This document shows positions 43,567-61,222 of a DNA stretch of 64,000 bases, one piece after another; positions within the stretch are counted from its first letter, which is position 1; every line of letters starts with the position of its first letter. The translations under genes and the position numbers were made by a program. The notes beneath the pieces are model-generated. The model was given only the letters and a program-made list of their open reading frames with translations. It was not told the origin of the DNA and made no database searches. Source of the DNA: an uncultured Candidatus Saccharibacteria bacterium (GTDB taxonomy: Bacteria; Patescibacteriota; Minisyncoccia; Phycocordibacterales; JACOZG01); assembly GCA_964651115.1 (NCBI GenBank), contig CAZYXJ010000001.1:213077-277076 (forward strand). Direction: 5' to 3'.

Positions 43567-44301
43567 CTAAACTTTGCCTAAGAAAACTTTTTCCAAAACA
43601 CCACTGGCAATGAGCGTAGTCGGCTGCCCCTCGGCGACCAGTAAGCCCTTATCAAGCACGTAGGCTCGGTCAGTAATTTCTAAAAGTGATTTAAGATTGT
43701 GCTCAACTACCACCACGGCGATCTGGCGTTTCTGATTAATCTCTTTAATCGTGGCAAAAATTTCCTTCACGATCTTGGGAGCAAGTCCTAGTGATGGCTC
43801 ATCGAGAAGCAGAACCTTAGGGTCGGTGACCAAGCCGCGAGCGATCGCGAGCATTTGCTGCTGGCCCCCAGAGAGCGTCCCCGATTTGGCTTTGAGTTTG
43901 GTTTTAAGCGCCGGTAAAAGGTCGAGAACTTCCGCAATCTTCTCTCTAACTAGTTTTTTGTTCTTAATCACGATCCCGCCTAATTCCAAATTTTCCTGCA
44001 CCGTCAGATGACGGAAAACCCGGCGGCCCTGCGGTACAAAAGTGATCCCCCGCAACACCATCTCGTGCGAGACTGGGGTAACCGACTCTTCGTGCCAGTA
44101 GACTTTGCCCCGCTCGATAGGCGCCAGGCCAAAGAGGGCCTTTAGAACCGTCGACTTCCCCGCCCCGTTGGGCCCCATCAAGGCCACCACCTCACCCTCA
44201 TCAATTGCTAGCGAAACACCGTCAAGCGCCTTCACGCCACCATAGTGGACATGGAGATCCTCTAGTTTTAGCAATTTTTCTGTAGCAACAGCCGTGGGCA
44301 T
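43567..44301 (-). CDS. livF: Branched-chain-amino-acid-type ABC transporter ATP-binding protein (LivF-like)
   Basis: Walker A GPNGAGKST, signature LSGGQQQML, Walker B LLLDEPS. Confidence 0.82.
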   Translation of the reverse strand: MPTAVATEKLLKLEDLHVHYGGVKALDGVSLAIDEGEVVALMGPNGAGKSTVLKALFGLAPIERGKVYWHEESVTPVSHEMVLRGITFVPQGRRVFRHLTVQENLELGGIVIKNKKLVREKIAEVLDLLPALKTKLKAKSGTLSGGQQQMLAIARGLVTDPKVLLLDEPSLGLAPKIVKEIFATIKEINQKRQIAVVVVEHNLKSLLEITDRAYVLDKGLLVAEGQPTTLIASGVLEKVFLGKV

Positions 44302-44307
44302 GGTTTA

Positions 44308-45327
44308 TTAATTACCAGTTAAGATCGTTGGCTGGCCACCTTTAATTTGCTTCATGATAATCGGGCGGGTGTAGATGCCGCTAGCGTTAAACTTGGCGCC
44401 TGAGAGAAGATTACTTTTGACACAGCTGTAATCACCCTTACACTCCGTAACAGCTTGGACCAAAACCTCGGTTGCTTGTTTGGAGAGTCCAAAAACCGCC
44501 CCCTCGCTACCCTCCAAATCGCCAGGGAACGAATAAATCACATCGGGTACTAACTCACGCACGGCCGGTAATTCCGCTACGTAAGTTGTATAGACCGGCA
44601 CCATCACTTTAAGTTGGCGGAGCTTGGGTACGCCGCTGCCAAAGAAGAAGGAGATATCAGGTGAGTAGATAGCGTCAACGCCAGCTTTGCTAATCTTTAA
44701 TACCTCCGGCGAGAGATCAACAGTCTCGTCGGTTAAAACAACGTCTTGAGCGATTGTGCCCTTAAAGTTTTTACGGAAGCTGTCGGCGTGAGTCTGAGAG
44801 AAGGCGTTTTTAAAGCTCACCAGCGCCACCTTGCGATGACCACGAGCAAACATTTGCTCAGCCACAAACTTCGACTCCTCTTGGAGAGAATACTGGATAT
44901 TGAAGAAGTTGTTGCCGCTAGCCGCATACAAATCTGAGGAAGCGGCGGCTGGTACAATGGACAGAACCTCCTTACCCTTTAAAAGCGGCACAACCGCCTC
45001 TTGAGGCGAGCCGCAGGCGGGACCAATGATGTATTTAGCTTTATCAAACTCCGCTAATTTTTGATAAGCAGTTACCGCCACCTTTGGGTCACATTGATCA
45101 TCCTCAAAAATCAAACTAACAGCCGTCGTACTCCCAACACCAGCCTGCACACCTCGGCGGACCTCCTCACCATAATCAGCCAGTGGACCAGTAAGCGGCG
45201 CGATTACTCCTATTTTGACAGGTTCGCTTGTGCCCACAGGGCCATCTTTTTTAACCGCCACGCCAATACCCCACACCACCAGAATAATGACAATGATCGC
45301 GATTATAATTTTTGCTGTGTTGGACAT
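44308..45327 (-). CDS. Type I periplasmic-binding-fold substrate-binding protein (LivJ/K-like), anchored - paralogue 1
   Basis: N-terminal uncleaved TM anchor with no lipobox Cys. VKIGVIAPLTGPLADYG pattern. Confidence 0.78.
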   Translation of the reverse strand: MSNTAKIIIAIIVIILVVWGIGVAVKKDGPVGTSEPVKIGVIAPLTGPLADYGEEVRRGVQAGVGSTTAVSLIFEDDQCDPKVAVTAYQKLAEFDKAKYIIGPACGSPQEAVVPLLKGKEVLSIVPAAASSDLYAASGNNFFNIQYSLQEESKFVAEQMFARGHRKVALVSFKNAFSQTHADSFRKNFKGTIAQDVVLTDETVDLSPEVLKISKAGVDAIYSPDISFFFGSGVPKLRQLKVMVPVYTTYVAELPAVRELVPDVIYSFPGDLEGSEGAVFGLSKQATEVLVQAVTECKGDYSCVKSNLLSGAKFNASGIYTRPIIMKQIKGGQPTILTGN

Positions 45328-45337
45328 GGTGTTTTTG

Positions 45338-46081
45338 CTATTCTCCTAAATATGCCTCAATTACTTCTGGCTTTTTTAAAACTTCTTCTGGTAAACCTTG
45401 GGCCAAGAGCTGGCCGGCGTCCATCACGATTAAGTGATCACACAACTCGCGGATTAAATCCATGTTGTGCTCGACTAAAATAATAGTTTTACCTGCCGCC
45501 CGGAGCTCTTTAATTACGCTCACCACTGTTTTAATCATCTCAGGAAAGAGTCCGGCAAATGGTTCATCAAGAAAAATGATGGAGGCCGCGTTGTCACTAG
45601 CCGAGACCATCGCGAGCACGCGCGCGATCTCCAAGAGCTTGCGCTGACCATAAGAGAGATTAGCGGCTAACTCCCCGCGCTTCTCCCACAGACCAACTTT
45701 TTTAAGGGCCGCCTCAGCCTGAGCCACATGAAAATCTTTGTGCTTCTCAAACAGTGAGGCAAAAGTGTTCCGCTCTGTTAGGACCACCAAGATGTTATCG
45801 AGCACCGGCATTTGCTCAAAGAGTCGTACGTCTTGGAAGGTGCGGGTTACGCCGTACTCGGCTGACTCATAAGCGCGCAAGCGCGAGAGCTCAACGCCAG
45901 AAATTACGATCGCCCCCGCCTCAAACGGGAACATGCCAGTGAGAGTATTGATAAGAGTCGATTTGCCCGAGCCGTTGGGACCGATCACGCCAGTGATCTT
46001 GCCGGCAGCAAATTCAACCGAGAGCCGGTCTACCGCCTTAACCCCGTCAAATTGTTTGGAGAGACCGTGGGTTTTAAGCAT
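45338..46081 (-). CDS. livG: ABC transporter ATP-binding protein (LivG-like)
   Basis: Walker A GPNGSGKST, signature LSYGQRKLLE, Walker B IFLDEPFAG. Confidence 0.82.
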   Translation of the reverse strand: MLKTHGLSKQFDGVKAVDRLSVEFAAGKITGVIGPNGSGKSTLINTLTGMFPFEAGAIVISGVELSRLRAYESAEYGVTRTFQDVRLFEQMPVLDNILVVLTERNTFASLFEKHKDFHVAQAEAALKKVGLWEKRGELAANLSYGQRKLLEIARVLAMVSASDNAASIIFLDEPFAGLFPEMIKTVVSVIKELRAAGKTIILVEHNMDLIRELCDHLIVMDAGQLLAQGLPEEVLKKPEVIEAYLGE

Positions 46082-46120
46082 CGTAGCCTAATTAAATAGG
46101 ATGTTGCCCCGACCGTCAAA

Positions 46121-46846
46121 TTACCGTTTTGGTCTAATTGAATAGCAAACCCAGGTGTAACCCAGGGCATTATTGTAGCGCCTGCCGACAACCTCACAAC
46201 CACAATCGCTAACTAAGTTCTCCAGCACCACAAAATCAGCATTGGGATCTTTAGTATTTGCGCTTTGCAGGTTAGAGTGAGTTAAGAGTATGTAGCCGCC
46301 TGGATTAATATGGTCTCTGGCCTCCTCAAATAGTCTTCGGTGCAGGACCATCCCCGGATCATAGAGCGCTGCGGTGATGCTTGTTTTTTCTGTGGGGACA
46401 GCGTTCGTAATGGGCAGATTAGCAATTATCCGATCATATTTTTTATTCCCCATTGCTGAGAAGAGATCACTTACGAATACCGATATTGTGTCTTCTAGAC
46501 CATTTAGTTGAACATTATGTTTGCTGCAAGCTACCGCCTCCGGAATAAGATCCACAGCATCAACGTGTTTGGCCCCTTTAATAACTGCCGCAATTGATTC
46601 GACACCAGTACCGCAACCGATGTCAGCAACATCCAAACCGCTCAAATCACCAAGAGCTTCATATAATGTGCGAGAGGACACGGAGTGATCAGCGGCCGGC
46701 GGAAAAATGCCAGGGAAGACATCGATTAAGATAATTTTGCCATCGATTTCGACATTCACCCGATAAGTTCCTTGGGCTTTCTTGCGCTCCAGTTCTTTGA
46801 CCATTCCCTGGGTCTGCGGGGAATCAGCTTGTGGTTTGATTTCCAT
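46121..46846 (-). CDS. SAM-dependent methyltransferase (MTS / HemK-RsmC-like small domain)
   Basis: Motif I VADIGCGTGVESI. Degenerate motif IV IIANLPIT. Confidence 0.72.
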   Translation of the reverse strand: MEIKPQADSPQTQGMVKELERKKAQGTYRVNVEIDGKIILIDVFPGIFPPAADHSVSSRTLYEALGDLSGLDVADIGCGTGVESIAAVIKGAKHVDAVDLIPEAVACSKHNVQLNGLEDTISVFVSDLFSAMGNKKYDRIIANLPITNAVPTEKTSITAALYDPGMVLHRRLFEEARDHINPGGYILLTHSNLQSANTKDPNADFVVLENLVSDCGCEVVGRRYNNALGYTWVCYSIRPKR

Positions 46847-48006
46847 TACTCAGCCTTCACGAATTTACCCTCACGAACAGTCTTCATTTCAAAGGCTTCG
46901 ACTGGAGTCTCAACAAAACCCTTGTCATCAAACTCAATGAGAGGAATAGATACACTGCCCTCAAACCTCACCTTCTCTAAACCTGATCGAACATTCTCTC
47001 GATTAATTTCTTGGCCAGACTCAACAAGGCCCTTCATCACCTCCGCCAGAACCAAAACTGCGTTGTAAGAGGTAACAGCCGATGGCGACAATGGCTTTAG
47101 ATTAAATCTAGCTTCGTACGCCTTCTCAAACTGATCATAACCATGAGACTGGCTTGGCGTTGCAAAATATAGACGGTTTTGCATCAGCTCTGGGCATTCG
47201 CTCAAAGCTTTTGGCGTTCCGGCAGACTCGGTGGAGAGAAGAGGTAAAGGCGCTCCAAGTTCCTTAGACTGAGCCAAAAAGACACATTCCAACTCGGCAA
47301 AAGCGCCAAAGAAGGCGTCTGGGGATTTGGCCTTAGCCTTGCTAATCAAAGTTCGATAATCAGTAACGGCATAGTCCGTACCCATTTCTTTAGCCACCAC
47401 AGTAATACCAAATTCTGGCGCATTTTTTTCAACCAAGTTAGCAGTAAAAAGCCAGAAGCTAAAGTTTGCTGGCTGGACAATGGCAATCTTTTTCCAGCCC
47501 TTATTTTGAGCAAACTTGAGTAATTCTCTAATCCCCACTTCGTTCTTGGGCCAAGTAACAAAGAAATAAGGTGAGTTAACTTTAGACTCAATGTAGGTTG
47601 AGACATTGGGGCTCACCACTGGAGTTTTGTCAGCTGAAGAGATGGCAGCCACTACCTCGCCGTTACCGTCCCACTGAGGACCAACAATAGCGACTACATT
47701 ATCAACTGCAATTAACTTCTTGGCCGCTGCCGCTCCGCGTTTAAGATCAAGACCAGGAGCGTCTTCTGAAACCATTTCTATTTTCTTGCCACCCACCCCA
47801 CCTTGAGCATTTACTTCTTCCACCGCTAGCAGAGCCCCGTTCTTTTCCTCTGCACCAATTTCAGCGCCTAAGCCAGATTGCCCAGACATCTGCCCGATCT
47901 TGATAACCTCCGCCGAGACTGAATTAGGATTTTTGCTCTTGCTCGCCCAAACTCCCAGCCCCACCACCACCAGAATTATGACGATCCAAATTATTGTTTT
48001 TTTCAT
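46846..48006 (-). CDS. LivJ/K-like substrate-binding protein, anchored - paralogue 2
   Basis: MKKTIIWIVIILVVVGLGVW anchor. IKIGQMSGQSGLGAEIG...AVEEVNAQGG. Confidence 0.78.
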   Translation of the reverse strand: MKKTIIWIVIILVVVGLGVWASKSKNPNSVSAEVIKIGQMSGQSGLGAEIGAEEKNGALLAVEEVNAQGGVGGKKIEMVSEDAPGLDLKRGAAAAKKLIAVDNVVAIVGPQWDGNGEVVAAISSADKTPVVSPNVSTYIESKVNSPYFFVTWPKNEVGIRELLKFAQNKGWKKIAIVQPANFSFWLFTANLVEKNAPEFGITVVAKEMGTDYAVTDYRTLISKAKAKSPDAFFGAFAELECVFLAQSKELGAPLPLLSTESAGTPKALSECPELMQNRLYFATPSQSHGYDQFEKAYEARFNLKPLSPSAVTSYNAVLVLAEVMKGLVESGQEINRENVRSGLEKVRFEGSVSIPLIEFDDKGFVETPVEAFEMKTVREGKFVKAE

Positions 48007-48009
48007 AGT

Positions 48010-48732
48010 TTATTTAATTCCCACAACAACAGCTTCCATCATTTTGCGATAAACCGTTTCCACACCCTTAAAACCAATCGAAGTCATAAACGTTTTTGCC
48101 TCCCCTTCAAAAAACACCAGATCTTCTTGTTCGTCACGTTCCATGTGTGCAAGCCACTCTTTTTTGTAATCCGACCGACCAATGGTGTCGTAAATGTCAT
48201 ATTTGGCAATTTGTTCTCTATAAATCTCTTGTCGCTTTTCTGGATCATCATGGGCATACTTATCACCATTAACAAAAATGCCACCCGGCTTTAAGACCCT
48301 GAAGATTTCTGAAATTATCTGTCGACGAAAGTTTTGTTCAAAATTATGGATCACGAAACCAGAAGCTACGGCATCAAATGATGAGTCTGGTATATTCTTC
48401 AAATATTCTCCGACCTCACTTTCAATTACCGTCACCCGATTGGAAGCTTGCCAACGATTAAGATTATCCTGGATTTGATCAATCATTTTTTTCTCATTAT
48501 CAACAGCCACAACGCGTACACGAGAATCTGAGTCAAGTAGAAACTTGGTAGTAATCCCGGTCCCACATCCGACCTCCATAGTTACAATACTCCCCACCTG
48601 AGAATCCTTGAAGTGCTCGCGGATAGCTTGCCCAACCGCCTGCTGAAGTTCATCATAGTGCGGGTAAGCCAACTTCAAAAGCTCATACTCTTCGCCCAGG
48701 ATATTATTAAATCTTTGATCGTTAGAAGTCAT
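48010..48732 (-). CDS. Class I SAM-dependent methyltransferase
   Basis: Motif I MEVGCGTGITT, plus LKPGGIFV. Confidence 0.78.
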   Translation of the reverse strand: MTSNDQRFNNILGEEYELLKLAYPHYDELQQAVGQAIREHFKDSQVGSIVTMEVGCGTGITTKFLLDSDSRVRVVAVDNEKKMIDQIQDNLNRWQASNRVTVIESEVGEYLKNIPDSSFDAVASGFVIHNFEQNFRRQIISEIFRVLKPGGIFVNGDKYAHDDPEKRQEIYREQIAKYDIYDTIGRSDYKKEWLAHMERDEQEDLVFFEGEAKTFMTSIGFKGVETVYRKMMEAVVVGIK

Positions 48733-48737
48733 TTTAT

Positions 48738-49847
48738 TTATTTCAGAGGAATAATTCTATTTTTCTCAACTTTAAAGAACAGCACTGGTTTATGAGCATT
48801 GCCGTCATCATCAAAAGTCATCGTGCCAGATGCGCCAACAAACTCTTTAATATTACTGAGAGATTTAGCAACTAGCTCTGGATCAGTCGACCCGACATCG
48901 CTGATCGCCTTGATGTATAGGTTAAATGCATCATAAGCCTGATTAGCCGGAAAACCAACCTCTCGCTGATATTTAGATTGGAATTTTTTATTAAACGCAC
49001 TATCAACTGTATCAGTAGAAACAAAGATCGTTCCTTCCAAAGAACCTTGGGCTTGATCGATCGTAGGCTGAAACAACAATACAGAGAAAAATGGGATCGT
49101 CATCCCTAAATCTCGCAGCCGCTGGGCAGAAACGGCCGTTTGTCCATAATTAGTAAAAACAACGGCCTCTGGATTAGACGTTTTTATCTTCGTTGCTTCG
49201 GTTCGCAAATCTTTGTTGTCGACGGTAGGCAGTTGAATTGAGACTACGGCTCCACCAAGCTCTTCAAATTTTTTCTTTACAAAATTAGCCTGGTCCATCT
49301 CCCACTCTTGCTGAGAGCCAAATATAGCAATCTTTCGAAATCCTCTTTGCTTATAGAGATACTCGGCCAAGGTAAAACTATCAAATTTGTTAGGCGGAAA
49401 AACATCAAAAGTTCTTGGACTCATTTCAGCAAATTTTTCTGACCCGACTGACGGAGAAATAATTACTACGTTTGCCTTTTCTGCTACAGGAGCCAACACC
49501 GTCGCTGTGGGAGTGAAATCCGGACCAATTATCAAACGCACATCACGATTTATTAGGTTATAAAGCGCCGATAATCCACCTTTGGGATTATCGCCAAGAT
49601 TATCCTCATAAACCATTTCAACCGGTCGGCCCAATACGCCTCCAGCTTGATTAACTTCTCCAACAGCCAGATCAATACCTCGTTTGGCATTCTCACCGGT
49701 ATCAGCAAAGTTACCGGTTAAATTGAGGATTGCGCCAATCTTAATTGGGCCATCAGTATTATTTGACATCTGCCCATCACGATAAAACCACGCCCCCAAC
49801 CCAACCAGCACTAGAATTATGACAACCCAAATAACGATTTTTTTCAT
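48738..49847 (-). CDS. LivJ/K-like substrate-binding protein, anchored - paralogue 3
   Basis: MKKIVIWVVIILVLVGLGAW anchor. IKIGAILNLTGNFADTGENAKRGIDLAVGEVNQAGG. Confidence 0.8.
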   Translation of the reverse strand: MKKIVIWVVIILVLVGLGAWFYRDGQMSNNTDGPIKIGAILNLTGNFADTGENAKRGIDLAVGEVNQAGGVLGRPVEMVYEDNLGDNPKGGLSALYNLINRDVRLIIGPDFTPTATVLAPVAEKANVVIISPSVGSEKFAEMSPRTFDVFPPNKFDSFTLAEYLYKQRGFRKIAIFGSQQEWEMDQANFVKKKFEELGGAVVSIQLPTVDNKDLRTEATKIKTSNPEAVVFTNYGQTAVSAQRLRDLGMTIPFFSVLLFQPTIDQAQGSLEGTIFVSTDTVDSAFNKKFQSKYQREVGFPANQAYDAFNLYIKAISDVGSTDPELVAKSLSNIKEFVGASGTMTFDDDGNAHKPVLFFKVEKNRIIPLK

Positions 49848-49850
49848 ATT

Positions 49851-50930
49851 TTATTCTAGATCTGTTAGCTGACCACCTTTTACCGCCATAATTTTAGTTT
49901 CTGGCTTGCGATTACCGGTGCCGTCAAACTCGATCTTGCCGCCCACACCCGCAAAGTTTGCAGCCTTAAGATTTTTGACCCAAGTGGCCTGATTAGCGTC
50001 ATAGGTTGCGACCAGCAAATTAAACGCATCGTAGCCGATATCAGACAAAAAGCCAGGATCAGCATTAAAGCGAGCTTTGTACTTAGCTTTAAACTCATCG
50101 GCCACGTCCGACTTTACCGTTCCGACAATCGTGCCATCAAGAACCTTCATATCACCCAAGATACGCTGGTAATCAGAGAAGCCAGATTGGAAGTTGGTGT
50201 CAAAAAAGAATTGCGGATTATTTTTCTTAATCTTCAAAAATTCTTGCATAAAGCGAGCGCCCTGCTGCGGCACAATAAAGAGACCGATCGTACTGGAGTT
50301 GCTAGCGGCCACCTTTAAAGCGTGGGGTCGGAGATCCTTTTCGTCAGCCTGGATAACAAAATCAGTAGTTGTACCCTGGAAGCCTTGTTTAAAACTTTCT
50401 ACAAAGCGGACCATGGCATCAATATTGCTGTAGACAATCGCCATCTCTTTAACACCCTTCTCTCTCATATACACTCCGTACTCATACTCAGAAGCGATAC
50501 TGTTGGGCAAAATACCAAGCACGTTATCATCAGCCGGCTCTCGTCCCTGCTCGCCCATTTGGATAACCGGTAGATCGGTTGTCGTTACCGCACCATAAAT
50601 CGCATCGATCGTCGGCGTAGAAACATTGATCAGCGCCTGGATCTGATTGCTCGTAATCAATTTTTGATAAGCACTGAGTCCCTTGCCACCATTAAAGCCA
50701 TCATCCTCCATAAAAACATTTATCTTAGCATCAGGATGCGCTTGATTATATTCCTCACTAGCCAAAACAACGCCGTTGCGGATGTTCTCGCCGACGGCCG
50801 CGTAATCTCCGCTAAGAATGGCGATGAGTCCTAGATTAAAACTTTTAGCTTGCTGATTGTTGCCAGACCAAACAACCGCCCCGATCACAATAATGGCAAT
50901 GATAACTACCCAAATAATTATTTTTTTCAT
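49851..50930 (-). CDS. LivJ/K-like substrate-binding protein, anchored - paralogue 4
   Basis: MKKIIIWVVIIAIIVIGAVVW anchor. LGLIAILSGDYAAVGENIRNG. Confidence 0.78.
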   Translation of the reverse strand: MKKIIIWVVIIAIIVIGAVVWSGNNQQAKSFNLGLIAILSGDYAAVGENIRNGVVLASEEYNQAHPDAKINVFMEDDGFNGGKGLSAYQKLITSNQIQALINVSTPTIDAIYGAVTTTDLPVIQMGEQGREPADDNVLGILPNSIASEYEYGVYMREKGVKEMAIVYSNIDAMVRFVESFKQGFQGTTTDFVIQADEKDLRPHALKVAASNSSTIGLFIVPQQGARFMQEFLKIKKNNPQFFFDTNFQSGFSDYQRILGDMKVLDGTIVGTVKSDVADEFKAKYKARFNADPGFLSDIGYDAFNLLVATYDANQATWVKNLKAANFAGVGGKIEFDGTGNRKPETKIMAVKGGQLTDLE

Positions 50931-50935
50931 ATTGG

Positions 50936-52057: not shown

Positions 52058-52123
52058 GACTCTAGTCTAGCAAGCTCGGGTGAACTGTAAAGCAAAAGTT
52101 GACTATACTGGTTTTATTGCCCG

Positions 52124-53239: not shown

Positions 53240-53343
53240 AATAGCATTATACAGATGAGCTATTTTATTGTATATAGATGAGGCTCGGTTGGACCGTTTC
53301 TCAAAAATATGCTTATTTATAGCGCTGGAACGGTTTTTATAAT

Positions 53344-53372
53344 TTGACTAAAAATTAGTCACAAGCTATACT
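53344..53372 (+). promoter_or_regulatory. Promoter with embedded perfect palindrome (candidate TrmB-like autoregulatory operator)
   Basis: TTGACT (53344-53349), N17, TATACT (53367-53372). TGACTAA-AAA-TTAGTCA inverted repeat at 53345-53361. Confidence 0.45.
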
Positions 53373-53378
53373 CAGCTG

Positions 53379-54203: not shown

Positions 54204-54212
54204 TCTGGGGAT

Positions 54213-55091
54213 TTAAATCTTATACTCCCCGATCAGGCCTTGAGGGCGGTAGAGCATAAGGACGATTAGCAAGAGGCCATAGACGGCTTGGCGCATTTGC
54301 GCCGCAATATCGGTGGGAAAGCCCACAAAACGCAAGGCCTCAGGCAACAGGATCAAACAAACCGCCCCCAAAACTGAGCCGCGGAGATTGGCCAGTCCGC
54401 CGAGAATAATAATCGCCAGCAAAAAGATCGACTCATTAAGCGAGAAAGTGGAAGGATCAATAAAGGTGATATAAGAAGCAAAAAGTGAGCCTGCTAGTGC
54501 CGCCAATCCAGCACTAATTACAAAGATCAGAAGTTTGTAATTAAAGGTGTGATAACCAAACACCCGGATCGCCTCCTCGTCCTCACGAATCGCCTTTAAA
54601 ACTCGGCCAAACGAGGATTTAACAATCAAACGTGATACAAGGTAAACCAAAGCAAGCGCTACGGCGGTTAAAACCAGAAACTCAAGGTTTGAGTTAAGGT
54701 CCAATTTCCAATTACCAATTCCTAAGGAGGGGCGAGTAATCCCGGGGACACCCAAGGGGCCGCGAGTTACTGATTGCCAGTTGAGAAAGATACTATAAAT
54801 GATGATGTTGAAGCCAAAGGAGCCGAGAGCGTAAAAGTCTTCGCGGAAGCGCGAGAGCACCACGCCCACTACCACCGAGACCAACATCGCGATAATCATC
54901 CCGATCAAAGTTGCCAAGAAAAAGTTCAACCCCATTCCTGTTAGCAGCAGCGCTGTGGCGTAAGCGCCAATGCCATAAAAGGCGGCTTGAGTGATGGAAA
55001 GGAGACCAGTGTAGCCAACGATCAGATTTAAGCTGATCCCCAAGATCCCGTAGATACCGATCAGAATGGCTAAGTGGATTAAATATTCCAT
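54213..55091 (-). CDS. livM: Branched-chain-type ABC transporter permease (LivM-like)
   Basis: About 8 TM segments. GYTGLLSITQAAFYGIGAY pattern. Confidence 0.82.
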   Translation of the reverse strand: MEYLIHLAILIGIYGILGISLNLIVGYTGLLSITQAAFYGIGAYATALLLTGMGLNFFLATLIGMIIAMLVSVVVGVVLSRFREDFYALGSFGFNIIIYSIFLNWQSVTRGPLGVPGITRPSLGIGNWKLDLNSNLEFLVLTAVALALVYLVSRLIVKSSFGRVLKAIREDEEAIRVFGYHTFNYKLLIFVISAGLAALAGSLFASYITFIDPSTFSLNESIFLLAIIILGGLANLRGSVLGAVCLILLPEALRFVGFPTDIAAQMRQAVYGLLLIVLMLYRPQGLIGEYKI

Positions 55092-55093
55092 GG

Positions 55094-55972
55094 CTACTTT
55101 TTAAATAGACCCTGCGGGCGAAATAAAAGAAACAGAAGCAGGAGCACGAAGGCGATCGCATCCTTCCACTCCCCGGCCAACTTCCAAATCCCAAAATTTT
55201 CTACAAAGCCCAAAATAAAAGCCCCGATGATCCCACCCCAAATATTACCGGCGCCACCAATAATCGCCGCGATCACTCCTTTTAGGAGGAGTGATAACCC
55301 CATCGTTGGCTCGATACCGGTATCAAAGCCGATCATGATCCCCGCCAACCCAGCAATGGCCGAGCCGAGAAAGAAAACGGTGGCAATCACATTGCTGGTA
55401 TTGATCCCCACGATTTTAGAAACCTCTTCATCATCGCCCACGGCCCGGATGGCTTTACCGATCGCCGTGTATTTAAGAAAGAGTCCCAGCAGCACGCCGA
55501 TCACCAGGACCAGGGCCACAATAATAAGCTGGACCTGAGTGATTACGCCGCCGGCAATCTCGTAGACCTGACCGCTGCCGGCGGCGCGACTTAGGGTCTG
55601 GAACTGACTAGTAAAGAGCATGGCGATAATCGCCTGGAGCATGGTAAAGGCACCCAGGGAGGCAACTAGCAAAACCATGTTGGAAGCTTTGCGCTTCCGA
55701 AGCGGTCGATAAACTAGATAGTTAATCAAAAGCCCGATCAAACCAGCCACCAAGACGCCCAAAACCACCGCCCACCATAAGTCGCCACCAAGTTTTTTAT
55801 AAAAAAAGAAAACGGTATAACCACCCACTGCCGTGAGAGCACCATAACCAAGATCAAAAAACTTGACCGTACCAAAGATTAAATTAAAACCGAGCGCCAA
55901 GAGAGCATAGATGGCGCCAGCAATAATGCTATTAGCAACAAGTTGTGGCAAGATATCCATATATATTTTCAA
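55094..55972 (-). CDS. livH: Branched-chain-type ABC transporter permease (LivH-like)
   Basis: LVANSIIAGAIYALLALGFNLIFG is the typical LivH N-terminus. Confidence 0.82.
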   Translation of the reverse strand: MKIYMDILPQLVANSIIAGAIYALLALGFNLIFGTVKFFDLGYGALTAVGGYTVFFFYKKLGGDLWWAVVLGVLVAGLIGLLINYLVYRPLRKRKASNMVLLVASLGAFTMLQAIIAMLFTSQFQTLSRAAGSGQVYEIAGGVITQVQLIIVALVLVIGVLLGLFLKYTAIGKAIRAVGDDEEVSKIVGINTSNVIATVFFLGSAIAGLAGIMIGFDTGIEPTMGLSLLLKGVIAAIIGGAGNIWGGIIGAFILGFVENFGIWKLAGEWKDAIAFVLLLLFLLFRPQGLFKK

Positions 55973-56028
55973 CCAAACTATAACAGCAACCTGAGCTGAC
56001 TACAAATCAGGTCCGGAATAAAACAAGC

Positions 56029-57135
56029 CTACTCTGCCATTCTCACAAACTTACCATCCTGGATAGATTTAAAGTAAAACTCTCTTTGAATGGTGTTCTG
56101 GTCAAAAGACATGACCCCACTTACTCCTTGGTAATTATTTAGTTGTAAAATGTAATCTCTGACACAAGACGAATTATTTTTGCCACAACTCTCAAGGGCA
56201 TCAATCAATATTTTGTATATATCGTAAGCATTGTAAGCCGCCACTTGAGGCCGTCCGCTGGTTACCTTTTGAAATTCGCTGATAAACTTTTGCTGAGCAC
56301 TAGTAAGAGAGCTCTCGTTAATTGGGAAAGTGTAAACCAATCCCTCCAAGCTACTACCTCCAGCCGCCACCAAATCAGACGCCTCTGTCGCGTATTGACC
56401 AAACAGAGGTACATCTATTCCTAATTCTCTGGCCTGTTTAGCAATTTGCCCGACTCCAGCCCCATTGTAGACAATATATAGAGCATCCGGGGCGGCCTTT
56501 TTGAGTTTAAGCAGGCTGGTTCGAAAATCCTGCGACCCAACAAGGAAAGGCTCGGCCCCAACCAAAACTCCACCACGTTTTTCTGTTTCCTCTTTGAACG
56601 ATCGGTAATGAAGGAGACCAAAATCATTGTTCATATAGATAATGGCCGGTTTTTGTTTTTTAAGTTTGGTGACAATTAATTCCGCCAACACTCGTGCCTC
56701 ACTGTCTGCTTCATGGGAGCCCTTGATCACATATCCCTCGATCTTATTGGCCGCACCCCAGGGTGTGAAGGCGACGATTTGGTTTTGGCTGGCTAGAGGT
56801 TTTACCGCTTCTATTCCGGAACTATTTAGCGGACCCACAATGGCGTCGACACCATCTACCGTCACTAATTTATTGAAGGCTGATACCGCTTTTTCTGAAG
56901 TAAATCCATCATCTTCGTAGACAAGTTCAACCTTTTCGCCATAATCTTTATTGGCGATCTCCAAGGCTGCCCTGATATCCTCTCCTACCTTAGCCTGAGC
57001 CCCCGTTAAAGGAATAACCACACCAATCTTAATCGGCTCGCCCCTCACCGGGCTCGCCTCGTCTCTCCTGCTCGCCCACACTCCTAACCCCATCACTACC
57101 AGAATTATGACGATCCAAATTATTACCTTTTTCAT
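56029..57135 (-). CDS. LivJ/K-like substrate-binding protein, anchored - paralogue 7
   Basis: MKKVIIWIVIILVVMGLGVW anchor. IKIGVVIPLTGAQAKVGEDI. Confidence 0.78.
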   Translation of the reverse strand: MKKVIIWIVIILVVMGLGVWASRRDEASPVRGEPIKIGVVIPLTGAQAKVGEDIRAALEIANKDYGEKVELVYEDDGFTSEKAVSAFNKLVTVDGVDAIVGPLNSSGIEAVKPLASQNQIVAFTPWGAANKIEGYVIKGSHEADSEARVLAELIVTKLKKQKPAIIYMNNDFGLLHYRSFKEETEKRGGVLVGAEPFLVGSQDFRTSLLKLKKAAPDALYIVYNGAGVGQIAKQARELGIDVPLFGQYATEASDLVAAGGSSLEGLVYTFPINESSLTSAQQKFISEFQKVTSGRPQVAAYNAYDIYKILIDALESCGKNNSSCVRDYILQLNNYQGVSGVMSFDQNTIQREFYFKSIQDGKFVRMAE

Positions 57136-57137
57136 AT

Positions 57138-57893
57138 CTAATTATTTAATATAAGCTCGTGCATGTAAATCATCCCTCTTTGGAGGTTGTTGATTGAATT
57201 GTGTAACCAGGTCGTTTGTACCTCATAACCAAGCTTTTCCCCAACAATTCTGGGATCAGTTAAGTCACCACCCAAACTGTAGGAAGGAATCGCAATCACA
57301 CCCTGAGGGTTAAGGTGCTCTTTCGCTTCAACCAGAAATCTCTCAAACAGCTCGGGCAGCATGAGCATGCTGGCAGAAATGGTATCACCTTCTGGAGACT
57401 TACCAGCAAAAAACGGGATCATCCAAGTTATTAGATCCGCTTTTTCGTCGATCTTTTCAAATAAGTCACCCTGGACGACAGAAGCAATCGCCTCAACATT
57501 AAATCTTTTTATATTCTCCTGCGTATTTTCCACAGCCGGAAGGGAAACATCAGACATAACGACTTTCTTGGCTCCATACTTGGCCATTATTACTCCCATT
57601 AGCCCAGTACCTGATCCTATTTCAATTGCAGTTTTATTAAAAAAGAGAGCATTGTGATAAAAAAGATAACGAGCGTGATAACGACCCGAAGCAATTAGAG
57701 GATTCCACACCCCCTTTTTGATCAGAAAGTTTTTCAGAGTGTCGTCCTCCCCGCTTACGTCGTAGTTTACTTCAAAATCTTCGTGTTGGTGTTTTTCCCA
57801 TTGGGTCAAAACCAGATTTCTCTGGTCTTGATTTAGCATCTTTAAGTTATCCTCTTGGAGAGTCGCTTCCCGCTTATCCATATGCCTTTTCAA
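57138..57893 (-). CDS. SAM-dependent methyltransferase (same MTS-like family as 46121-46846)
   Basis: Motif I AIEIGSGTGLMGV, with architecture shared with 46121-46846. Confidence 0.7.
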   Translation of the reverse strand: MKRHMDKREATLQEDNLKMLNQDQRNLVLTQWEKHQHEDFEVNYDVSGEDDTLKNFLIKKGVWNPLIASGRYHARYLFYHNALFFNKTAIEIGSGTGLMGVIMAKYGAKKVVMSDVSLPAVENTQENIKRFNVEAIASVVQGDLFEKIDEKADLITWMIPFFAGKSPEGDTISASMLMLPELFERFLVEAKEHLNPQGVIAIPSYSLGGDLTDPRIVGEKLGYEVQTTWLHNSINNLQRGMIYMHELILNN

Positions 57894-57932
57894 CCAAACT
57901 ATACCTTATTCCTTGTATTGTTTCCAACGGTA

Positions 57933-59054
57933 TTAACGTAGTGATTTATAGCCGCCAGGTATACCATCTTTAGACAACACGATCTGCCACAGTTGGATAC
58001 TGCGAGCCCGAAAAGCTCCCGCACAGGCTAGCAAATAATAACGCCACATCCGTCGGAAGCGCTCAGAGTAATTTTGCTTGATCTGATCCCAACTGCGCTC
58101 AAAGTTTTGCTGCCAGGCCATTAGAGTCTTATCGTAATCAGAACCAAAATTGTGCCAATCTTCCATCACAAACAGGCCCTCAATCCCTCGGGCCATTTGG
58201 GCGACACTTGGCAAAACACCGTTAGGAAAAATGTACTTATCGATCCAAGGATCCGTTACCCTTGAGCCCACACTTTTACCGATCGTGTGGAGCAAAAAGA
58301 GTCCGCCATCTTTTAAGCAACGGCGGGCCACCTCAAAATAGCTGCGATAATTTTTATCACCCACATGCTCAAACATCCCCAACGACACAATCGCATCAAA
58401 CTGGCCGGTTAGATCACGATAGTCTTGCAATAAAATCTCGACCGGCAAACCCTGACACAACTCCATCCCAAGAGCCACCTGCTCCTTAGAAACAGTGACA
58501 CCAGTAACCCGCACCCCGTAACGCTCGGCCGCAAACTTGGCAAAGCTGCCCCAACCACAACCAATATCCAAAACGTGCATCCCGGGTTTAAGATTAAGCT
58601 TTTGGCAAACCAAATCTAATTTGGCCTCCTGCGCCTCATCGAGTGAGTTCGCCTGGCGCCAATAAGCACAAGTGTAGACCAAGCGTCGATCCAACATTTG
58701 GCGGTAAAGATCGTTGCCGGCATCGTAATGCTCCTCGCCCACCATAAAAGCCCGAGACTTTGATTGGCGGTTAAAAAGAGTGTTTATTAGATAAGAAAGG
58801 GCGAGTTGCCAACCCCCTCGAACTTGCTGGTGGAGTTTGGCGCGAAATATTTTATCGAAAAATTGATCCAGCTCCTGGGCGTCCCACCAACCATCCATAT
58901 AACTCTCTCCTAAAGCCAAGGAACCGCCGGCCAAAACCCGAGCGTAAAAACGTTCATCGTGGATCTGGATATCCCCCGGCGCGGCACCATTAATGGTAAC
59001 GCCAGCCTTGGCAAGCAGGTCAGTAATCAGCCGTTTAGCGGTTATAGTTGACAT
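57933..59054 (-). CDS. cfa: Cyclopropane-fatty-acyl-phospholipid synthase family methyltransferase
   Basis: YDAGNDLY, VLDIGCGWGSFA, GMFEHVG and YLLACAGAFR motifs of the CFA/mycolic-acid synthase family. Confidence 0.85.
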   Translation of the reverse strand: MSTITAKRLITDLLAKAGVTINGAAPGDIQIHDERFYARVLAGGSLALGESYMDGWWDAQELDQFFDKIFRAKLHQQVRGGWQLALSYLINTLFNRQSKSRAFMVGEEHYDAGNDLYRQMLDRRLVYTCAYWRQANSLDEAQEAKLDLVCQKLNLKPGMHVLDIGCGWGSFAKFAAERYGVRVTGVTVSKEQVALGMELCQGLPVEILLQDYRDLTGQFDAIVSLGMFEHVGDKNYRSYFEVARRCLKDGGLFLLHTIGKSVGSRVTDPWIDKYIFPNGVLPSVAQMARGIEGLFVMEDWHNFGSDYDKTLMAWQQNFERSWDQIKQNYSERFRRMWRYYLLACAGAFRARSIQLWQIVLSKDGIPGGYKSLR

Positions 59055-59133
59055 CGTTTTAAACTATCATGAAGTTTTTCCAAACGCCAACCACCCGCCT
59101 CTCGGCGGGTGGTTGGGAATAAACCTTAATTTT

Positions 59134-60252
59134 TTACTGACTGATCGTCACCGGCTTGCCGTCTTTAATCATGCGCACTACGGCCTTAGAATTTACAACG
59201 CCATTATCATCTATTGTTAGGTCCTTACCAAGAGCACCATCAAACTTAGGAATATCGGCGATTGCATCACGGATCTCACTTCTGCTGGGCTTAACTTCTC
59301 CGTTGCCCGCAGACTCTGTGGCCATAACAATCAGGTTAAGAACATCGTAGGCGTTAGCAGCGCCAAACTTTGGTCCTTGGTCATAGCGTTTAGTATATAA
59401 GTCAACAAACCATTGAGTTGGATCAGCGCCATTGACGTACCACATCCCCTCAAACAGTGACAACTGATCAGAAAACTCAAAAGCTTCCATCGTTGTTACC
59501 GGTGTCGTGATTCCGGCCTCACGCATTTGTTTGGCAAGAATTTCCAATTCGGGCGTGGTTGCCTCAAGAACATAGATGTCGGCACCCGAGATTTTAAAAC
59601 CCTTATCGATAAGGGTTTTAAAATCTCGGGTGCCAGTGTTAAACTTCTGAGTCGAAAGCACTTGGATATTAGTATTTTTTATATCCTTCTCGAAGCTGTT
59701 AATGATTGCTGCTACCCCTTGGTTATCTTGCTGCGCAAAAAAGACAAGCTTTTTTATGCCTCTTTTTTGTAACTCTTGAATAAAGAGCCGCGAATCCTCA
59801 TACGGTGGTGTGTAGTGAACAAAGTTATACTCACCGTCAGCCACCTGAGAAGCCGAAGCAAAGTCATTAATATGAGGCACTCCATTTTTCTCGGCAATCG
59901 GACTAATCACACTGCCCACCGGCGACCCAAAAGATACCAAAACGTCTGCCTTATCAATGGCGATAAGCTTGTTCGCCACGGTCGCACCCAGAGCTGGCTT
60001 AAACTGATCGTCTTCAAAGATAAGTTTGTAGTTATATTTGAGATTTTTTGGCAATCCCTCCTGTGCCAAGGTAATTGCGTTTTTGGCACTTTGGCCAAGC
60101 ATGGCTACGTCTCCGGTCAACGGCAAACTAACGCCAACGATAACTGTTGGTCTCATCGCCTCTGGGACTTGAGAATCTTGCCTGGTCAAAACCAGGCCTA
60201 TCAGGACGATGATGACAAGACCAATAATGGTCCAAATTATTTTTTTATTCAT
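59134..60252 (-). CDS. LivJ/K-like substrate-binding protein, anchored - paralogue 8
   Basis: TM anchor. VIVGVSLPLTGDVAMLGQSAKNAITLA. Confidence 0.78.
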   Translation of the reverse strand: MNKKIIWTIIGLVIIVLIGLVLTRQDSQVPEAMRPTVIVGVSLPLTGDVAMLGQSAKNAITLAQEGLPKNLKYNYKLIFEDDQFKPALGATVANKLIAIDKADVLVSFGSPVGSVISPIAEKNGVPHINDFASASQVADGEYNFVHYTPPYEDSRLFIQELQKRGIKKLVFFAQQDNQGVAAIINSFEKDIKNTNIQVLSTQKFNTGTRDFKTLIDKGFKISGADIYVLEATTPELEILAKQMREAGITTPVTTMEAFEFSDQLSLFEGMWYVNGADPTQWFVDLYTKRYDQGPKFGAANAYDVLNLIVMATESAGNGEVKPSRSEIRDAIADIPKFDGALGKDLTIDDNGVVNSKAVVRMIKDGKPVTISQ

Positions 60253-60421
60253 ATATGATTATAAATATATCTTATATCCACTCAAGCATAAACTAGATTT
60301 TTCTCTTGTCATTAATAATTATCTAATTGCCACAGGAAATATGGCCTTAACTAAAGGTTTTTTAACTTATTAATTTTTTTGTTCGTTAAAAGTGACAAAT
60401 GTTTAAATACGTGTTAGAGTT

Positions 60422-61222
60422 ATGGTTATGATAAATAGCCAAGTAACTAACCAGTTAAAGGACACTGGTCTAAGCGAGAAAGCAGCCTTAGTTTATACCA
60501 CCTTACTTAAACTTGGTGGGGCCTACCCTTCTAGCCTCGCAGCCGCCACCAAGCTTAACCGTAGTACCGTTTATAAACTTCTCCTAGATCTATCAATAAA
60601 AGGATTGGTCACCGAGGTTGAACGAGGCAAAAAACTTTACTACCAAGCTGAAAAACCTGAAAAATTACTTAGGTTTGCAAAAAATCAAGCCGATTTAGCC
60701 AAAGGGGCTTACGACCAGATTCGACAACTAATACCAGAGCTCGAAACGATTTTTGCTTCCAATCCCAACAAACCGGTAATCCGCTACTTCCAAGACAAGG
60801 CCGGCATTGCTTCTATCTACGAAGAAATGGTATCTGAAAAAAAATATGAAATGGTCTCTTTTTCCCACGGAGAAGCTTTTAAGAATTACCTGCCCACTGC
60901 GGCACTAAGGAAATTTGTGCGCGCAAAAGAGCGCAATGGCATCACCACCCGAGCGATTGCTCCAGACACGGAGGAAAACCGAAAATATACCACTGCCGTT
61001 TTTGAGGGTATCAAGAAAGACTTCTGGCTAGAGATCCGTTATGTTCCTAACGAATTTTTTCCTTTCGAGGCGGAAATTACGCTTTATGGAAACTCGAAGC
61101 TGGCGCTAACAAAACTGCGCGGCGACAAGTTAATCGGTGTTGTTATCGACGAAAAATTGATTCATGACATGTTCAAAATGATTTTTGAACTAGTCTGGCG
61201 CTCAGATCAAGTTAAGAAATAA
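60422..61222 (+). CDS. TrmB-family transcriptional regulator
   Basis: LKDTGLSEKAALVYTTLLKLGGAYPSSLAAATKLNRSTVYKLLLDLSIKGLV plus a C-terminal TrmB-like domain. Divergent from an SBP operon. Confidence 0.78.
   Translation: MVMINSQVTNQLKDTGLSEKAALVYTTLLKLGGAYPSSLAAATKLNRSTVYKLLLDLSIKGLVTEVERGKKLYYQAEKPEKLLRFAKNQADLAKGAYDQIRQLIPELETIFASNPNKPVIRYFQDKAGIASIYEEMVSEKKYEMVSFSHGEAFKNYLPTAALRKFVRAKERNGITTRAIAPDTEENRKYTTAVFEGIKKDFWLEIRYVPNEFFPFEAEITLYGNSKLALTKLRGDKLIGVVIDEKLIHDMFKMIFELVWRSDQVKK

Follow-up and report, generated by a model that had tools for sequence, protein, structure and literature searches.

We found that positions 43567-61222 of the window, which is the whole 64 kb stretch of DNA analyzed here, hold a LivH/LivM-like permease pair, LivG-like and LivF-like ATPases, eight binding proteins (SBPs) of the Peripla_BP_6 family, four SAM methyltransferases and two TrmB-like regulators. 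The source lineage is Patescibacteria (CPR), and the genome is small. We judge, with a probability of about two in three, that the cluster encodes a HAAT (Liv/Urt-type) importer typical of this CPR lineage, in which one core is served by a flexible set of anchored receptors, and that the methyltransferases are guests outside the transport mechanism.

Gene content and operon layout

All 18 open reading frames of the inventory drawn up in the earlier note were recovered at their coordinates with fitting Pfam matches, and no further Liv component or TrmB-like gene was found in the 64 kb window outside the cluster. The two regulator genes lie on the plus strand and all the other genes on the minus strand. 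The permeases are encoded at 54213-55091 (LivM-like; BPD_transp_2, 161.2 bits) and 55094-55972 (LivH-like; BPD_transp_2, 158.5 bits), and the ATPases at 45338-46081 (LivG-like; ABC_tran, 89.6 bits, and the LivG-type tail BCA_ABC_TP_C, 29.2 bits) and 43567-44301 (LivF-like; ABC_tran, 121.8 bits), the last being the final gene of the backbone. Their top NCBIfam matches were LivM and UrtC, UrtB and LivH, LivG and UrtD, and UrtE and LivF, respectively, each below its cut-off; Urt, which handles urea, is a sister system to Liv. The GC3 of the core genes is 0.57-0.58 (0.58 in the LivF-like ATPase gene, which is genome-like), that of housekeeping genes is 0.59-0.67, and that of most SBP genes, of the methyltransferase genes MT_A, MT_B and MT_C and of the regulator gene Trm2 is 0.36-0.46.

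The two-operon layout proposed earlier agrees with promoter-like sites (10/12) immediately 5′ of SBP8, SBP6 and Trm1. SBP8 heads the permease-containing operon, and its site (TTGAGT-16-TATAAT; 60258-60285, minus strand) has a −10 box that ends 5 nt 5′ of the ATG. SBP6 heads the ATPase-containing operon, and the −10 box of its site (TATACA-17-TATAAT; 53246-53274, minus strand) ends 6 nt 5′ of the ATG. Terminator-like sites were not above chance level. Trm1 (53379-54203), divergent from SBP6 and convergent with the LivM-like gene, clears PF01978 TrmB narrowly (27.1 bits; cut-off, 25.6), and Trm2 (60422-61222), divergent from SBP8, matches it at 44.8 bits. Both share the N-terminal wHTH of archaeal TrmB regulators, but the sugar-binding C-terminal domain of TrmB was not detected in either, and Trm1 and Trm2 have no detectable likeness to each other beyond the HTH. 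A perfect palindrome, TGACTAA-N3-TTAGTCA (53345-53361, unstranded), is the sole exact copy within the window; it covers the −35 box in the promoter-like site of Trm1 and is a candidate operator. In the related cluster L085, the Trm1 orthologue (70% identity) keeps both the arrangement with SBP6 and the palindrome 5′ of it, and each of the two Trm2 orthologues in locus L005 (36-40% identity) is transcribed divergently from a pair of SBP genes. The promoter-like sites and the conserved palindrome fit this conservation of regulator-receptor pairs.

Receptor diversity

All eight SBPs matched Peripla_BP_6 at 86-196 bits, against a cut-off of 31.7 bits. Four of them have orthologues in related loci whose pocket-equivalent residues could be compared: SBP7 (56029-57135; 180 bits), immediately upstream of LivH, in L091 (72.5% identity, equivalent position, 12/12 residues retained); SBP6 (52124-53239; 86.1 bits) in L085 (82%, divergent from the Trm1 orthologue, 12/12); SBP1 (44308-45327; 106 bits), an anchored receptor encoded between both ATPase genes, in L086 (59%, equivalent position, 10/12); and SBP8 (59134-60252; 130 bits), whose orthologue heads the L085 cluster (50%, 8/12). 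The nearest solved relatives of SBP7 are the amino-acid binders 3TD9, 4GNR and LivJ, and SBP6 has merely remote similarity to solved structures. The best relatives of SBP2 (46846-48006; 151.5 bits) are L089 11973-13238 (38%) and the L005 SBP adjoining the MT_A orthologue (31-33%), this SBP and SBP2 being each other's best match within the L005 locus. For SBP3 (48738-49847; 195.6 bits, GC3 0.36), no clear orthologue was found among the sampled relatives, the best match being at about 30% identity. SBP4 (49851-50930; 95.1 bits) forms a divergent subfamily with SBP6 (33% identity) and had no NCBIfam match at E≤1e-8. SBP5 (50936-52057) scored 176 bits and has a GC3 of 0.40.

Each of the eight N-termini has a Lys-rich stretch followed by a hydrophobic segment of 19-20 residues. 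There is no Cys in the first 45 residues of any of them, which shows that a lipobox is absent, as the earlier note had claimed; its description of the anchors as uncleaved is an inference, and SBP2 and SBP7 contain V-W-A|S, which may be a signal-peptidase site.

The eight paralogues are only 24-33% identical to each other, which points to an ancient divergence. The pocket comparison that the earlier note had proposed was run on 12 positions equivalent to the ligand contacts of LivJ, by sequence alignment to LivJ at about 25% identity, and the pocket-equivalent residues are not near-identical: paralogues agree at 0-5 of the 12 positions and orthologues at 8-12. This divergence between paralogues, together with the retention within orthologues, supports diversified specificity. 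Since none of the eight SBPs retains the full LivJ contact set, specificity for branched-chain amino acids cannot be assumed. About 49 SBPs from nine clusters fell into 29 groups at about 34% identity or more (LivJ was counted, as a singleton), in keeping with turnover of the receptor repertoire.

Comparison with relatives and with known importers

Homologues of the LivM-like permease that are 70-79% identical carry the labels Patescibacteria, Paceibacterota, Nomura-, Wolfe- and Taylorbacteria. Six related clusters (L085-L090) were found via LivM and were independently sampled; L005 and L091 were found via methyltransferases and are biased samples. The backbone SBP(n)-LivH-LivM-SBP(n)-LivG-SBP(n)-LivF is common to the six relatives, with three SBPs in L090, four in L085 and L086, six in L087 and L088, and eight in L089. 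A ratio of 8:1 is thus the upper end of the lineage norm (3-8). The idea that this ratio reflects scavenging through a single channel held in part: there is a single translocator with diversified receptors in a conserved layout, but eight receptors are not special to this genome.

Genes inserted in the relatives' clusters include IVP, Fic, NYN, MNT/HepT, AbiEii, GIY-YIG, NUDIX and DUF5678, with toxin-antitoxin genes among them. Homologues of MT_A, MT_B, MT_C and Cfa were absent from all six LivM-found clusters. Methyltransferases make up 4/5 of the inserts here and 1/24 in the six relatives (hypergeometric p ~0.001); random insertion is therefore not the explanation, and this bias counts against treating the methyltransferases simply as guests.

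The E. coli LivJ/LivK-LivHMGF system (HAAT) likewise has two BPD_transp_2 permeases, LivG/LivF-type ATPases, Peripla_BP_6 receptors and more than one receptor per translocator. However, it has two receptors rather than eight, its receptors are free in the periplasm rather than on an N-terminal hydrophobic tether, and its receptor genes are not interleaved with the permease and ATPase genes as they are here; moreover, every component here falls below the NCBIfam equivalog cut-offs for Liv and Urt. Several SBPs per translocator, which a review terms "relatively rare" (PMC3971661), also widen the substrate range of HisJ/ArgT-HisQMP, Enterococcus faecalis OppBCDF and E. coli Opp/MppA. In contrast to these systems, the ratio here is much higher, with 3-8 receptors per cluster conserved across a large lineage, and the receptor genes are all contiguous with the transporter genes. 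Group II ECF transporters, in which one ECF module serves several S-components, follow a similar logic of a conserved energizing module with interchangeable capture subunits (PMC7755397), but the proteins and architecture are unrelated, the S-components being integral membrane proteins and not type I SBP folds.

We propose that the membrane-tethered type I SBPs would each take a different solute outside the cell, that all eight would dock on the one permease pair, and that import would then be powered by ATP hydrolysis. SBP genes would be gained, lost and exchanged between genomes around a near-constant core, and unrelated inserted genes would accumulate in the cluster. An ancestral single operon would have been split here by a TrmB-like regulator gene. 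Each half-operon begins with an SBP gene, the promoter of which lies opposite a TrmB-like regulator, and these regulators probably tune receptor expression.

Whether some of the eight SBPs instead serve on the surface of an episymbiont in host attachment, sensing or surface variation was also considered. SBP turnover is far above that of the translocator (about 30% versus 70-79% identity between genomes), no solved amino-acid binder is more than very remotely similar to SBP4 or SBP6, and none of the eight has the full set of LivJ contacts, which would suit such roles. However, all eight lie inside transporter operons at positions conserved in relatives, adhesin-like domains were absent in a Pfam search of the SBPs, and pocket retention within orthologue pairs argues for selection on ligand binding, which makes non-transport roles very unlikely.

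Methyltransferases

Cfa (57933-59054; CMAS, 312.9 bits), a cyclopropane fatty acyl phospholipid synthase of the E. coli type, passes the NCBIfam equivalog NF008686 full-length (627 bits; cut-off, 400); it is an ordinary lipid enzyme, unusual solely in its transporter-operon location, and would modify membrane lipids. MT_B (48010-48732; Methyltransf_11, 68.3 bits, GC3 0.39), a class I SAM methyltransferase, reached the cut-off of no NCBIfam model and had no homologue among all loci retrieved. MT_A (46121-46846; MTS, 62.7 bits, and PrmA, 57.7 bits; GC3 0.44) is a HemK/PrmA-like N-methyltransferase that missed every NCBIfam cut-off, and its start overlaps the SBP2 stop by 1 nt. MT_C (57138-57893; MTS, 48.8 bits, and Methyltransf_16, 30.8 bits) is an MTS-like N-methyltransferase with 2 nt spacing to SBP7 and probably an internal start (ATG at 57881 or 57839). 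The relatedness of MT_A and MT_C that the earlier note had seen was confirmed (24.7% over 223 aa, E 7.6e-11), and they are distant paralogues.

AF2 models of MT_A (pLDDT 93) and MT_C (pLDDT 92) are predicted to share the fold of the protein N-methyltransferases HemK/PrmC, HemK2/KMT9 and PrmA and of the carbamoyl N-methyltransferase Asc-Orf2 (PDB 9L4Q) at TM-scores of ~0.6-0.75. The top matches were Asc-Orf2, PrmC, gentamicin N-methyltransferase and PrmA for MT_A, and Asc-Orf2, HemK2/KMT9 and PrmA for MT_C. Like HemK, MT_A has a HemK-like segment ahead of the Rossmann domain; unlike HemK, MT_A has NLPI and MT_C has MIPF in place of the catalytic motif NPPY, with scores far under the family cut-offs. 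They form separate, well-conserved families (55-85% for MT_C), common to CPR bacteria and DPANN archaea, the only labels among the matches.

A Vut_1 (YhhQ-type) transporter directly adjoins MT_A orthologues, in either gene order and often overlapping, in 11 of the 18 loci for which the two flanks were available, and a divergent TrmB-like gene is present in 15 of the 25 loci with enough upstream sequence. YhhQ/Vut_1 proteins (COG1738) are preQ0 transporters (PMC5372724). In L005, the MT_A orthologue is immediately 5′ of the SBP2-like gene, which occupies the Vut_1 position, and an SBP adjoins the MT_A orthologue in L031. No Vut_1 gene was found in this window. In L091, the order MT_C-SBP7-LivH-LivM is kept (85%, 72.5%, 71.5% and 75% identity, respectively), and other MT_C orthologues (73-74%) have TerC or soluble uncharacterized proteins as neighbors and no transporter in the vicinity. 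This L091 order, and MT_A with Vut_1 and a divergent TrmB-like regulator, sometimes with an SBP, are the leads left for a methylation link.

These neighborhoods speak against the guest reading, the commonest neighbor of MT_A being an uptake protein, and they would suit uptake-coupled methylation, in which MT_A, and perhaps MT_C with SBP7, modifies a small molecule brought in by a neighboring Vut_1 or Liv-type SBP (for trapping, activation or detoxification) under TrmB-like control. The best fold match of both models, Asc-Orf2, is a small-molecule N-methyltransferase, but protein and RNA methyltransferases score similarly. The SBP2 match in L005 is weak, L005 and L091 are biased samples, MT_C also occurs away from transporters, and the known substrates of Vut_1, which are 7-deazaguanine precursors (PMC5372724), are not typical ligands of Liv-type SBPs. 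With no MT_A or MT_C homologue in the six LivM-found clusters, we consider this coupling unlikely. The least likely reading is that the MTS-like enzymes are protein N-methyltransferases (for Lys, Gln or N-terminal amines) acting on co-encoded SBPs or envelope proteins before export. Resemblance to PrmA, PrmC/HemK2 and KMT9, the MT_C matches to Methyltransf_16, a family of lysine methyltransferases, and to FAM86A, and the translational closeness of MT_A and MT_C to SBP genes would fit, but the NPPY of amide/amine methyltransferases is replaced, the majority of MT_A and MT_C orthologues do not adjoin SBP genes, and MT_B and Cfa are left unexplained.

As a general claim, the link between uptake and methylation suggested by the earlier note was not supported: the LivM-found clusters (0/6) hold unrelated inserts instead and Cfa is standard, with methyltransferase-SBP adjacency in L091, L005 and L031 as partial exceptions. 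The tight spacing cited for it is common in this genome: 9 of the 14 same-strand junctions in the cluster are spaced −1 to 10 nt, and half of the same-strand gaps outside it are ≤20 nt. Under the guest reading, the four methyltransferases would be co-transcribed and confined to this genome or close kin. Taken together, these results show that the importer with multiple receptors is real and has the layout usual in its lineage, and the genes for the methyltransferases mostly look like passengers rather than partners.

Composition and lineage distribution of the importer

The earlier note had described a single LivHMGF-type importer served by eight binding proteins, and its account of the gene content held in full, with 18/18 of the listed ORFs found where it had placed them (cluster 43567-61222). 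The eight binding proteins (SBP1-SBP8) match Peripla_BP_6 with 86-196 bits (Pfam; cut-off 31.7), which identifies them as type I substrate-binding proteins. Both permeases carry BPD_transp_2 (PF02653), at 161.2 bits in the LivM-like protein (54213-55091; nearest NCBIfam family LivM/UrtC) and at 158.5 bits in the LivH-like protein (55094-55972; nearest LivH/UrtB). ABC_tran is present in both ATPases, for which LivG/UrtD and LivF/UrtE are the nearest NCBIfam families, and the LivG-like ATPase (45338-46081) also has the LivG-type C-terminal tail BCA_ABC_TP_C (29.2 bits). This permease pair is the only one within 64 kb, the clustering of the Liv genes is kept in relatives, and no further Liv component or TrmB-like gene turned up when every ORF of the 64-kb window was scanned with HMMs. 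Judged by domain content, the cluster is a HAAT-family importer. No component reached the NCBIfam Liv and Urt equivalog cut-offs, and by these scores the cluster cannot be equated with the Liv or Urt system of E. coli; since all core proteins fall below the cut-offs, our assignment goes no further than the HAAT family.

The rest of the window fits a CPR genome: the transketolase is split, RNase J is present and biosynthetic genes are few. At 28572-30302, the gene of a lone SBP_bac_5 (Opp/Dpp-type) binding protein is found between GroEL upstream and RNase J downstream, and neither scanned neighbour is a permease. A Type ISP restriction-modification enzyme of 1124 aa (18759-22133; Type_ISP_C 280 bits, N6_Mtase) is associated with a low-GC patch at 16-20 kb. 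Another low-GC patch holds a region at 4488-7048 that looks like a diversity-generating retroelement, with a reverse transcriptase gene on the minus strand (4488-5504; RVT_1 84.6 bits) beside a pair of 120-nt repeats, 5908-6027 and 6408-6527, that are 500 nt apart. Because all mismatches between the repeats fall at T of copy 5908-6027 on the plus strand, which is A on the coding minus strand, this copy is taken as the template repeat; its variable counterpart (6408-6527) lies at the 3′ end of a 219-aa ORF on the minus strand (6389-7048).

Relatives of the LivM-like protein number in the thousands; the top 120 are 70-79% identical to it and, where named, are mostly labelled as CPR (Patescibacteria, Paceibacterota, Nomura-, Wolfe-, Taylorbacteria). 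Six LivM homologues (L085-L090), which are all the unbiased relatives in the sample, were picked by similarity alone and their surroundings were read. The backbone SBP(n)-LivH-LivM-SBP(n)-LivG-SBP(n)-LivF was found in 6/6, with three SBPs in L090, four each in L085 and L086, six each in L087 and L088, and eight in L089. The 8:1 ratio of receptors to translocator noted earlier is therefore real but not special, being the top of a common range of 3-8 that L089 also reaches. In most relatives the whole cluster lies on a single strand; in the closest relative, L085, as here, a TrmB-like gene on the other strand divides it into two operons, and that gene is an orthologue (70%) of the regulator Trm1 and adjoins an SBP6 orthologue (82% identical). 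The window LivH and LivM genes are 2 nt apart, with no 23S_rRNA_IVP (PF05635) gene between them; in four relatives such a gene sits exactly at this position (L085 2977-3375, L086 9558-9911, L089 9592-9984, and L091 5416-5799). We found no description of a multi-receptor Liv arrangement in CPR in the literature, only generic mentions as branched-chain amino-acid transporters. The cluster appears to be among the most conserved uptake devices of CPR.

Anchors, pockets and proposed regulation of the receptors

At the N-terminus of all eight SBPs, a Lys-rich stretch precedes a hydrophobic segment of 19-20 residues with a mean Kyte-Doolittle value of 2.6-3.6. The claim that no lipobox is present was borne out, since Cys is absent from residues 1-45 in 8/8. 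SBP2 and SBP7 contain VWA|S, where cleavage may occur; for the SBPs as a set, it is reasonable to infer an uncleaved transmembrane anchor. In SBP2 and SBP7, the 5′ ends that encode the anchor (47936-48014 and 57065-57143) have 85% DNA identity over 79 nt and use the same codon at 16/20 shared residues, while the remainder of the two genes has ~58% DNA and 27% protein identity. This likeness suggests local gene conversion, or a common cassette 5′ end able to help receptor-gene exchange. The SBPs of L005, a metagenome locus with an MT_A orthologue, repeat a similar 'MKK-IIW-hydrophobic' anchor motif.

The eight paralogues are 24-33% identical to one another. Their pockets were compared by proxy at 12 positions, which included Glu226 of LivJ as our own addition, presumed to belong to the pocket; the LivJ sequence used is identical to that of PDB 1Z15 and was aligned with all SBPs at ~25% identity. 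The other positions are the LivJ residues reported in contact with isoleucine (PMC6983066). In this alignment, paralogue pairs have 0-5/12 pocket-equivalent residues in common, whereas orthologues elsewhere keep 12/12 in SBP6 and SBP7, 10/12 in SBP1 and 8/12 in SBP8, and the receptor diversification proposed earlier thus passed the check for near-identical pockets. Although the alignment is at ~25% identity, the pattern is as expected from distinct, conserved specificities and supports them. None of the eight SBPs keeps the whole LivJ contact set at the 12 aligned positions. The closest solved structures of SBP7 and SBP2 are amino-acid binders; SBP6 is barely similar to any solved structure, and neither it nor its closest paralogue, SBP4, has an NCBIfam match at E<=1e-8.

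Across nine clusters, ~49 SBPs fall into 29 groups at roughly >=34% identity (LivJ counted as a singleton; at least 28 without it), and over the same span the permease remains >70% identical. By these comparisons, it is the set of receptors that varies, around a conserved channel. GC3 is 0.57-0.58 in the core genes, similar to the 0.59-0.67 of housekeeping genes, and only 0.36-0.46 in SBP2, SBP3, SBP5, SBP7, SBP8, Trm2 and the methyltransferase genes MT_A, MT_B and MT_C, which points to later acquisition of these genes. The 24 non-core genes in the clusters of the six relatives are IVP, Fic, NYN, MNT/HepT, AbiEii, GIY-YIG, NUDIX, DUF5678, small unknowns and one methyltransferase; with such inserts, the Liv cluster is an insertion hot spot. 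Integron-like cassettes were considered and rejected, since the 2-5-nt junctions are too short for attC-type sites and no junction element is repeated except the anchor-coding 5′ ends.

The two TrmB-like regulators, Trm1 (53379) and Trm2 (60422), contain the N-terminal TrmB wHTH (PF01978) at 27.1 and 44.8 bits (cut-off 25.6), a domain common to them and to Pyrococcus/Thermococcus TrmB. Unlike the latter, which has a C-terminal sugar-binding domain, they show no Pfam domain in their C-terminal 180 residues, so no sugar-binding effector domain was detected, and the match to TrmB in PDB 3QPH is confined to residues 6-103. Promoter-like sites with 10/12 matches lie directly before SBP8 (60258-60285), SBP6 (53246-53274) and Trm1 (53344-53372), and because their -10 boxes end 5-6 nt ahead of the ATG, the transcripts of these genes may be leaderless. 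At the L085 orthologue of Trm1 (7659-7720), the -10 box ends 7 nt ahead of the ATG. A perfect palindrome, TGACTAA-N3-TTAGTCA, overlaps the Trm1 -35 box; it occurs once in the window and is kept in L085. Trm2-type regulators are divergent from SBP genes twice in L005. Over 15.9 kb (1-15888), L005 consists of repeated modules of a TrmB-like gene divergent from two SBP genes, with five regulators and eight SBPs in all, and only 3 nt separate its LivG-like ATPase gene from the next gene, which encodes an unrelated class I methyltransferase (1332-2177). We infer that Trm1 and Trm2 probably control receptor expression.

METHYLTRANSFERASES genes amid the receptor genes

Four SAM methyltransferase genes lie amid the SBP genes. 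MT_A (46121-46846) and MT_C (57138-57893) are MTS/PrmA-like and distantly related to each other as paralogues (24.7% identity, E 7.6e-11), MT_B (48010-48732) matches Methyltransf_11 and belongs to class I, and Cfa (57933-59054) is a cyclopropane fatty acyl phospholipid synthase that scores 627.2 bits against the NF008686 equivalog (cut-off 400; residues 5-372). The TTG start of MT_C is probably false; the ATG at 57839 (an identical NCBI protein has 233 aa) or at 57881 may be used. Alignments with homologues of 241-247 aa begin near residue 5, which corresponds to the ATG at 57881. Homologues of MT_A and MT_C bear CPR and DPANN-archaeal labels. The HemK/PrmC motif NPPY is replaced by NLPI in MT_A and MIPF in MT_C, and the two enzymes stay below the cut-offs of HemK/PrmC (TIGR03534; 54.8 and 36.7 bits, cut-off 199) and of the PrmA equivalog (TIGR00406; 54.3 and 34.6 bits, cut-off 183). 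The top fold match of both AlphaFold models (pLDDT 93 for MT_A, 92 for MT_C) is the carbamoyl N-methyltransferase Asc-Orf2, followed by PrmC/HemK2/KMT9 and PrmA, and gentamicin N-methyltransferases also rank high for MT_A. On these models, MT_A and MT_C are probably N-methyltransferases. A role in anti-phage defence was rejected because the PADLOC matches are generic only (mad2 SAM-binding region for the four methyltransferases, CasR/Csa3 HTH for the regulators). MsrB (43118-43498) and MsrA (61506-62045) flank the cluster, and 3 kb downstream there is one more class I SAM methyltransferase, the fifth (39692-40459). A 'methionine/SAM economy island' of MsrA/MsrB around five SAM enzymes was considered, but the window contains no MetK or SAM-recycling gene.

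A link between uptake and methylation, called speculative in the earlier note, had been proposed from gene adjacency and tight spacing. Spacing is weak evidence, since half of the same-strand gaps outside the cluster are also <=20 nt. As to adjacency, none of the six LivM-found clusters (L085-L090) contains a homologue of MT_A, MT_B, MT_C or Cfa, but MT_C is linked to Liv genes in L091 and an SBP lies beside MT_A in L005 and L031. The only methyltransferase among the relatives' non-core genes is an unrelated class I enzyme on the opposite strand in L085. Methyltransferases make up 4/5 of the inserts here versus 1/24 in the six relatives (hypergeometric p ~0.001, by hand arithmetic), which does not fit pure chance. 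The outcome for the link is mainly negative, and on present evidence the methyltransferases should not be counted among the transporter components.

In the main rival reading, which we regard as unlikely, MT_A, perhaps also MT_C, methylates a compound after its import, and its partner may be either Vut_1 or an SBP, the two being interchangeable. The surroundings of the orthologues bear on it from both sides. A metagenome scan with MT_A yielded 33 further loci with true orthologues, which with L002 gave 34 for analysis; in genome contigs, the sole match was an unrelated protein (32%) from an actinobacterial MAG. A Vut_1/YhhQ-family transporter gene directly adjoins the MT_A orthologue, in both gene orders, in 11/18 loci with both flanks, and a divergent TrmB-like regulator is present in 15/25 loci with enough upstream sequence. 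The E. coli member, YhhQ, is a preQ0 importer (PMC5372724). The three genes together, a TrmB-like gene divergent from an MT_A-type methyltransferase and Vut_1, occur as a module in CPR and DPANN (L002, L008-L037, e.g. L019 9130-11355), with Vut_1 on either side and often overlapping. The window has no Vut_1 gene, and a Liv-type SBP lies beside an MT_A orthologue only in L005, where it starts ~27 nt after that gene and pairs with SBP2 as reciprocal best match, and in L031. For MT_C, L091 has an 85% orthologue followed by a 72.5% SBP7 orthologue, LivH and LivM, while orthologues at 73-74% lie beside TerC or soluble unknowns without Liv genes, one with a TrmB-like gene upstream; in L092-L096, a check for membrane transporters beside the MT_C orthologues showed TerC and soluble unknowns.

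In its fuller form, which we consider rather improbable, MT_A and possibly MT_C would be uptake-coupled N-methyltransferases of CPR/DPANN families that methylate a scavenged metabolite inside the cell, with a TrmB-like sensor-regulator and a swappable partner for capture or import, which is mostly Vut_1 but a Liv-type SBP in this genome, L005 and L091. If this were true, the SBP array and its regulators would be plug-in nutrient-acquisition cassettes round one conserved channel. By fold searches, small-molecule, protein and RNA substrates could not be told apart for MT_A and MT_C, and methylation of the receptors themselves is a minor alternative; another minor one is that some receptors have roles other than transport.

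A probable shared channel with exchangeable receptors

Taken together, we favour, with a probability of roughly two in three, a shared-channel importer with many receptors that is tuned by regulators, exchanges its receptor genes and has methyltransferases riding along. Each tethered receptor would bind its own solute and hand it to the common LivHM-like channel, which the LivG-like and LivF-like ATPases would power. The TrmB-like regulators would tune the choice of receptors made, receptor genes would be swapped among CPR genomes, and the methyltransferases would travel in the operons with no part in transport. Such an importer would work in the same way as LivJ/LivK-LivHMGF and as other translocators that more than one receptor serves, and ECF modules common to several S-components follow a similar logic. 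The cluster is a variant of known Liv-type systems, set apart by a high and conserved number of receptors, by interleaved genes, by presumed tethers of the transmembrane type and by modules that pair regulators with receptors.

CPR bacteria do not make most of their building blocks themselves but take them from hosts or the environment. The variable receptor set (3-8 receptors per genome; nine clusters gave at least 28 sequence groups) could reveal what each lineage scavenges. The module of MT_A, Vut_1 and a TrmB-like gene is a small new lead. An arrangement of several receptors on one translocator, which a review calls 'relatively rare' (PMC3971661), is the rule here in a large lineage.
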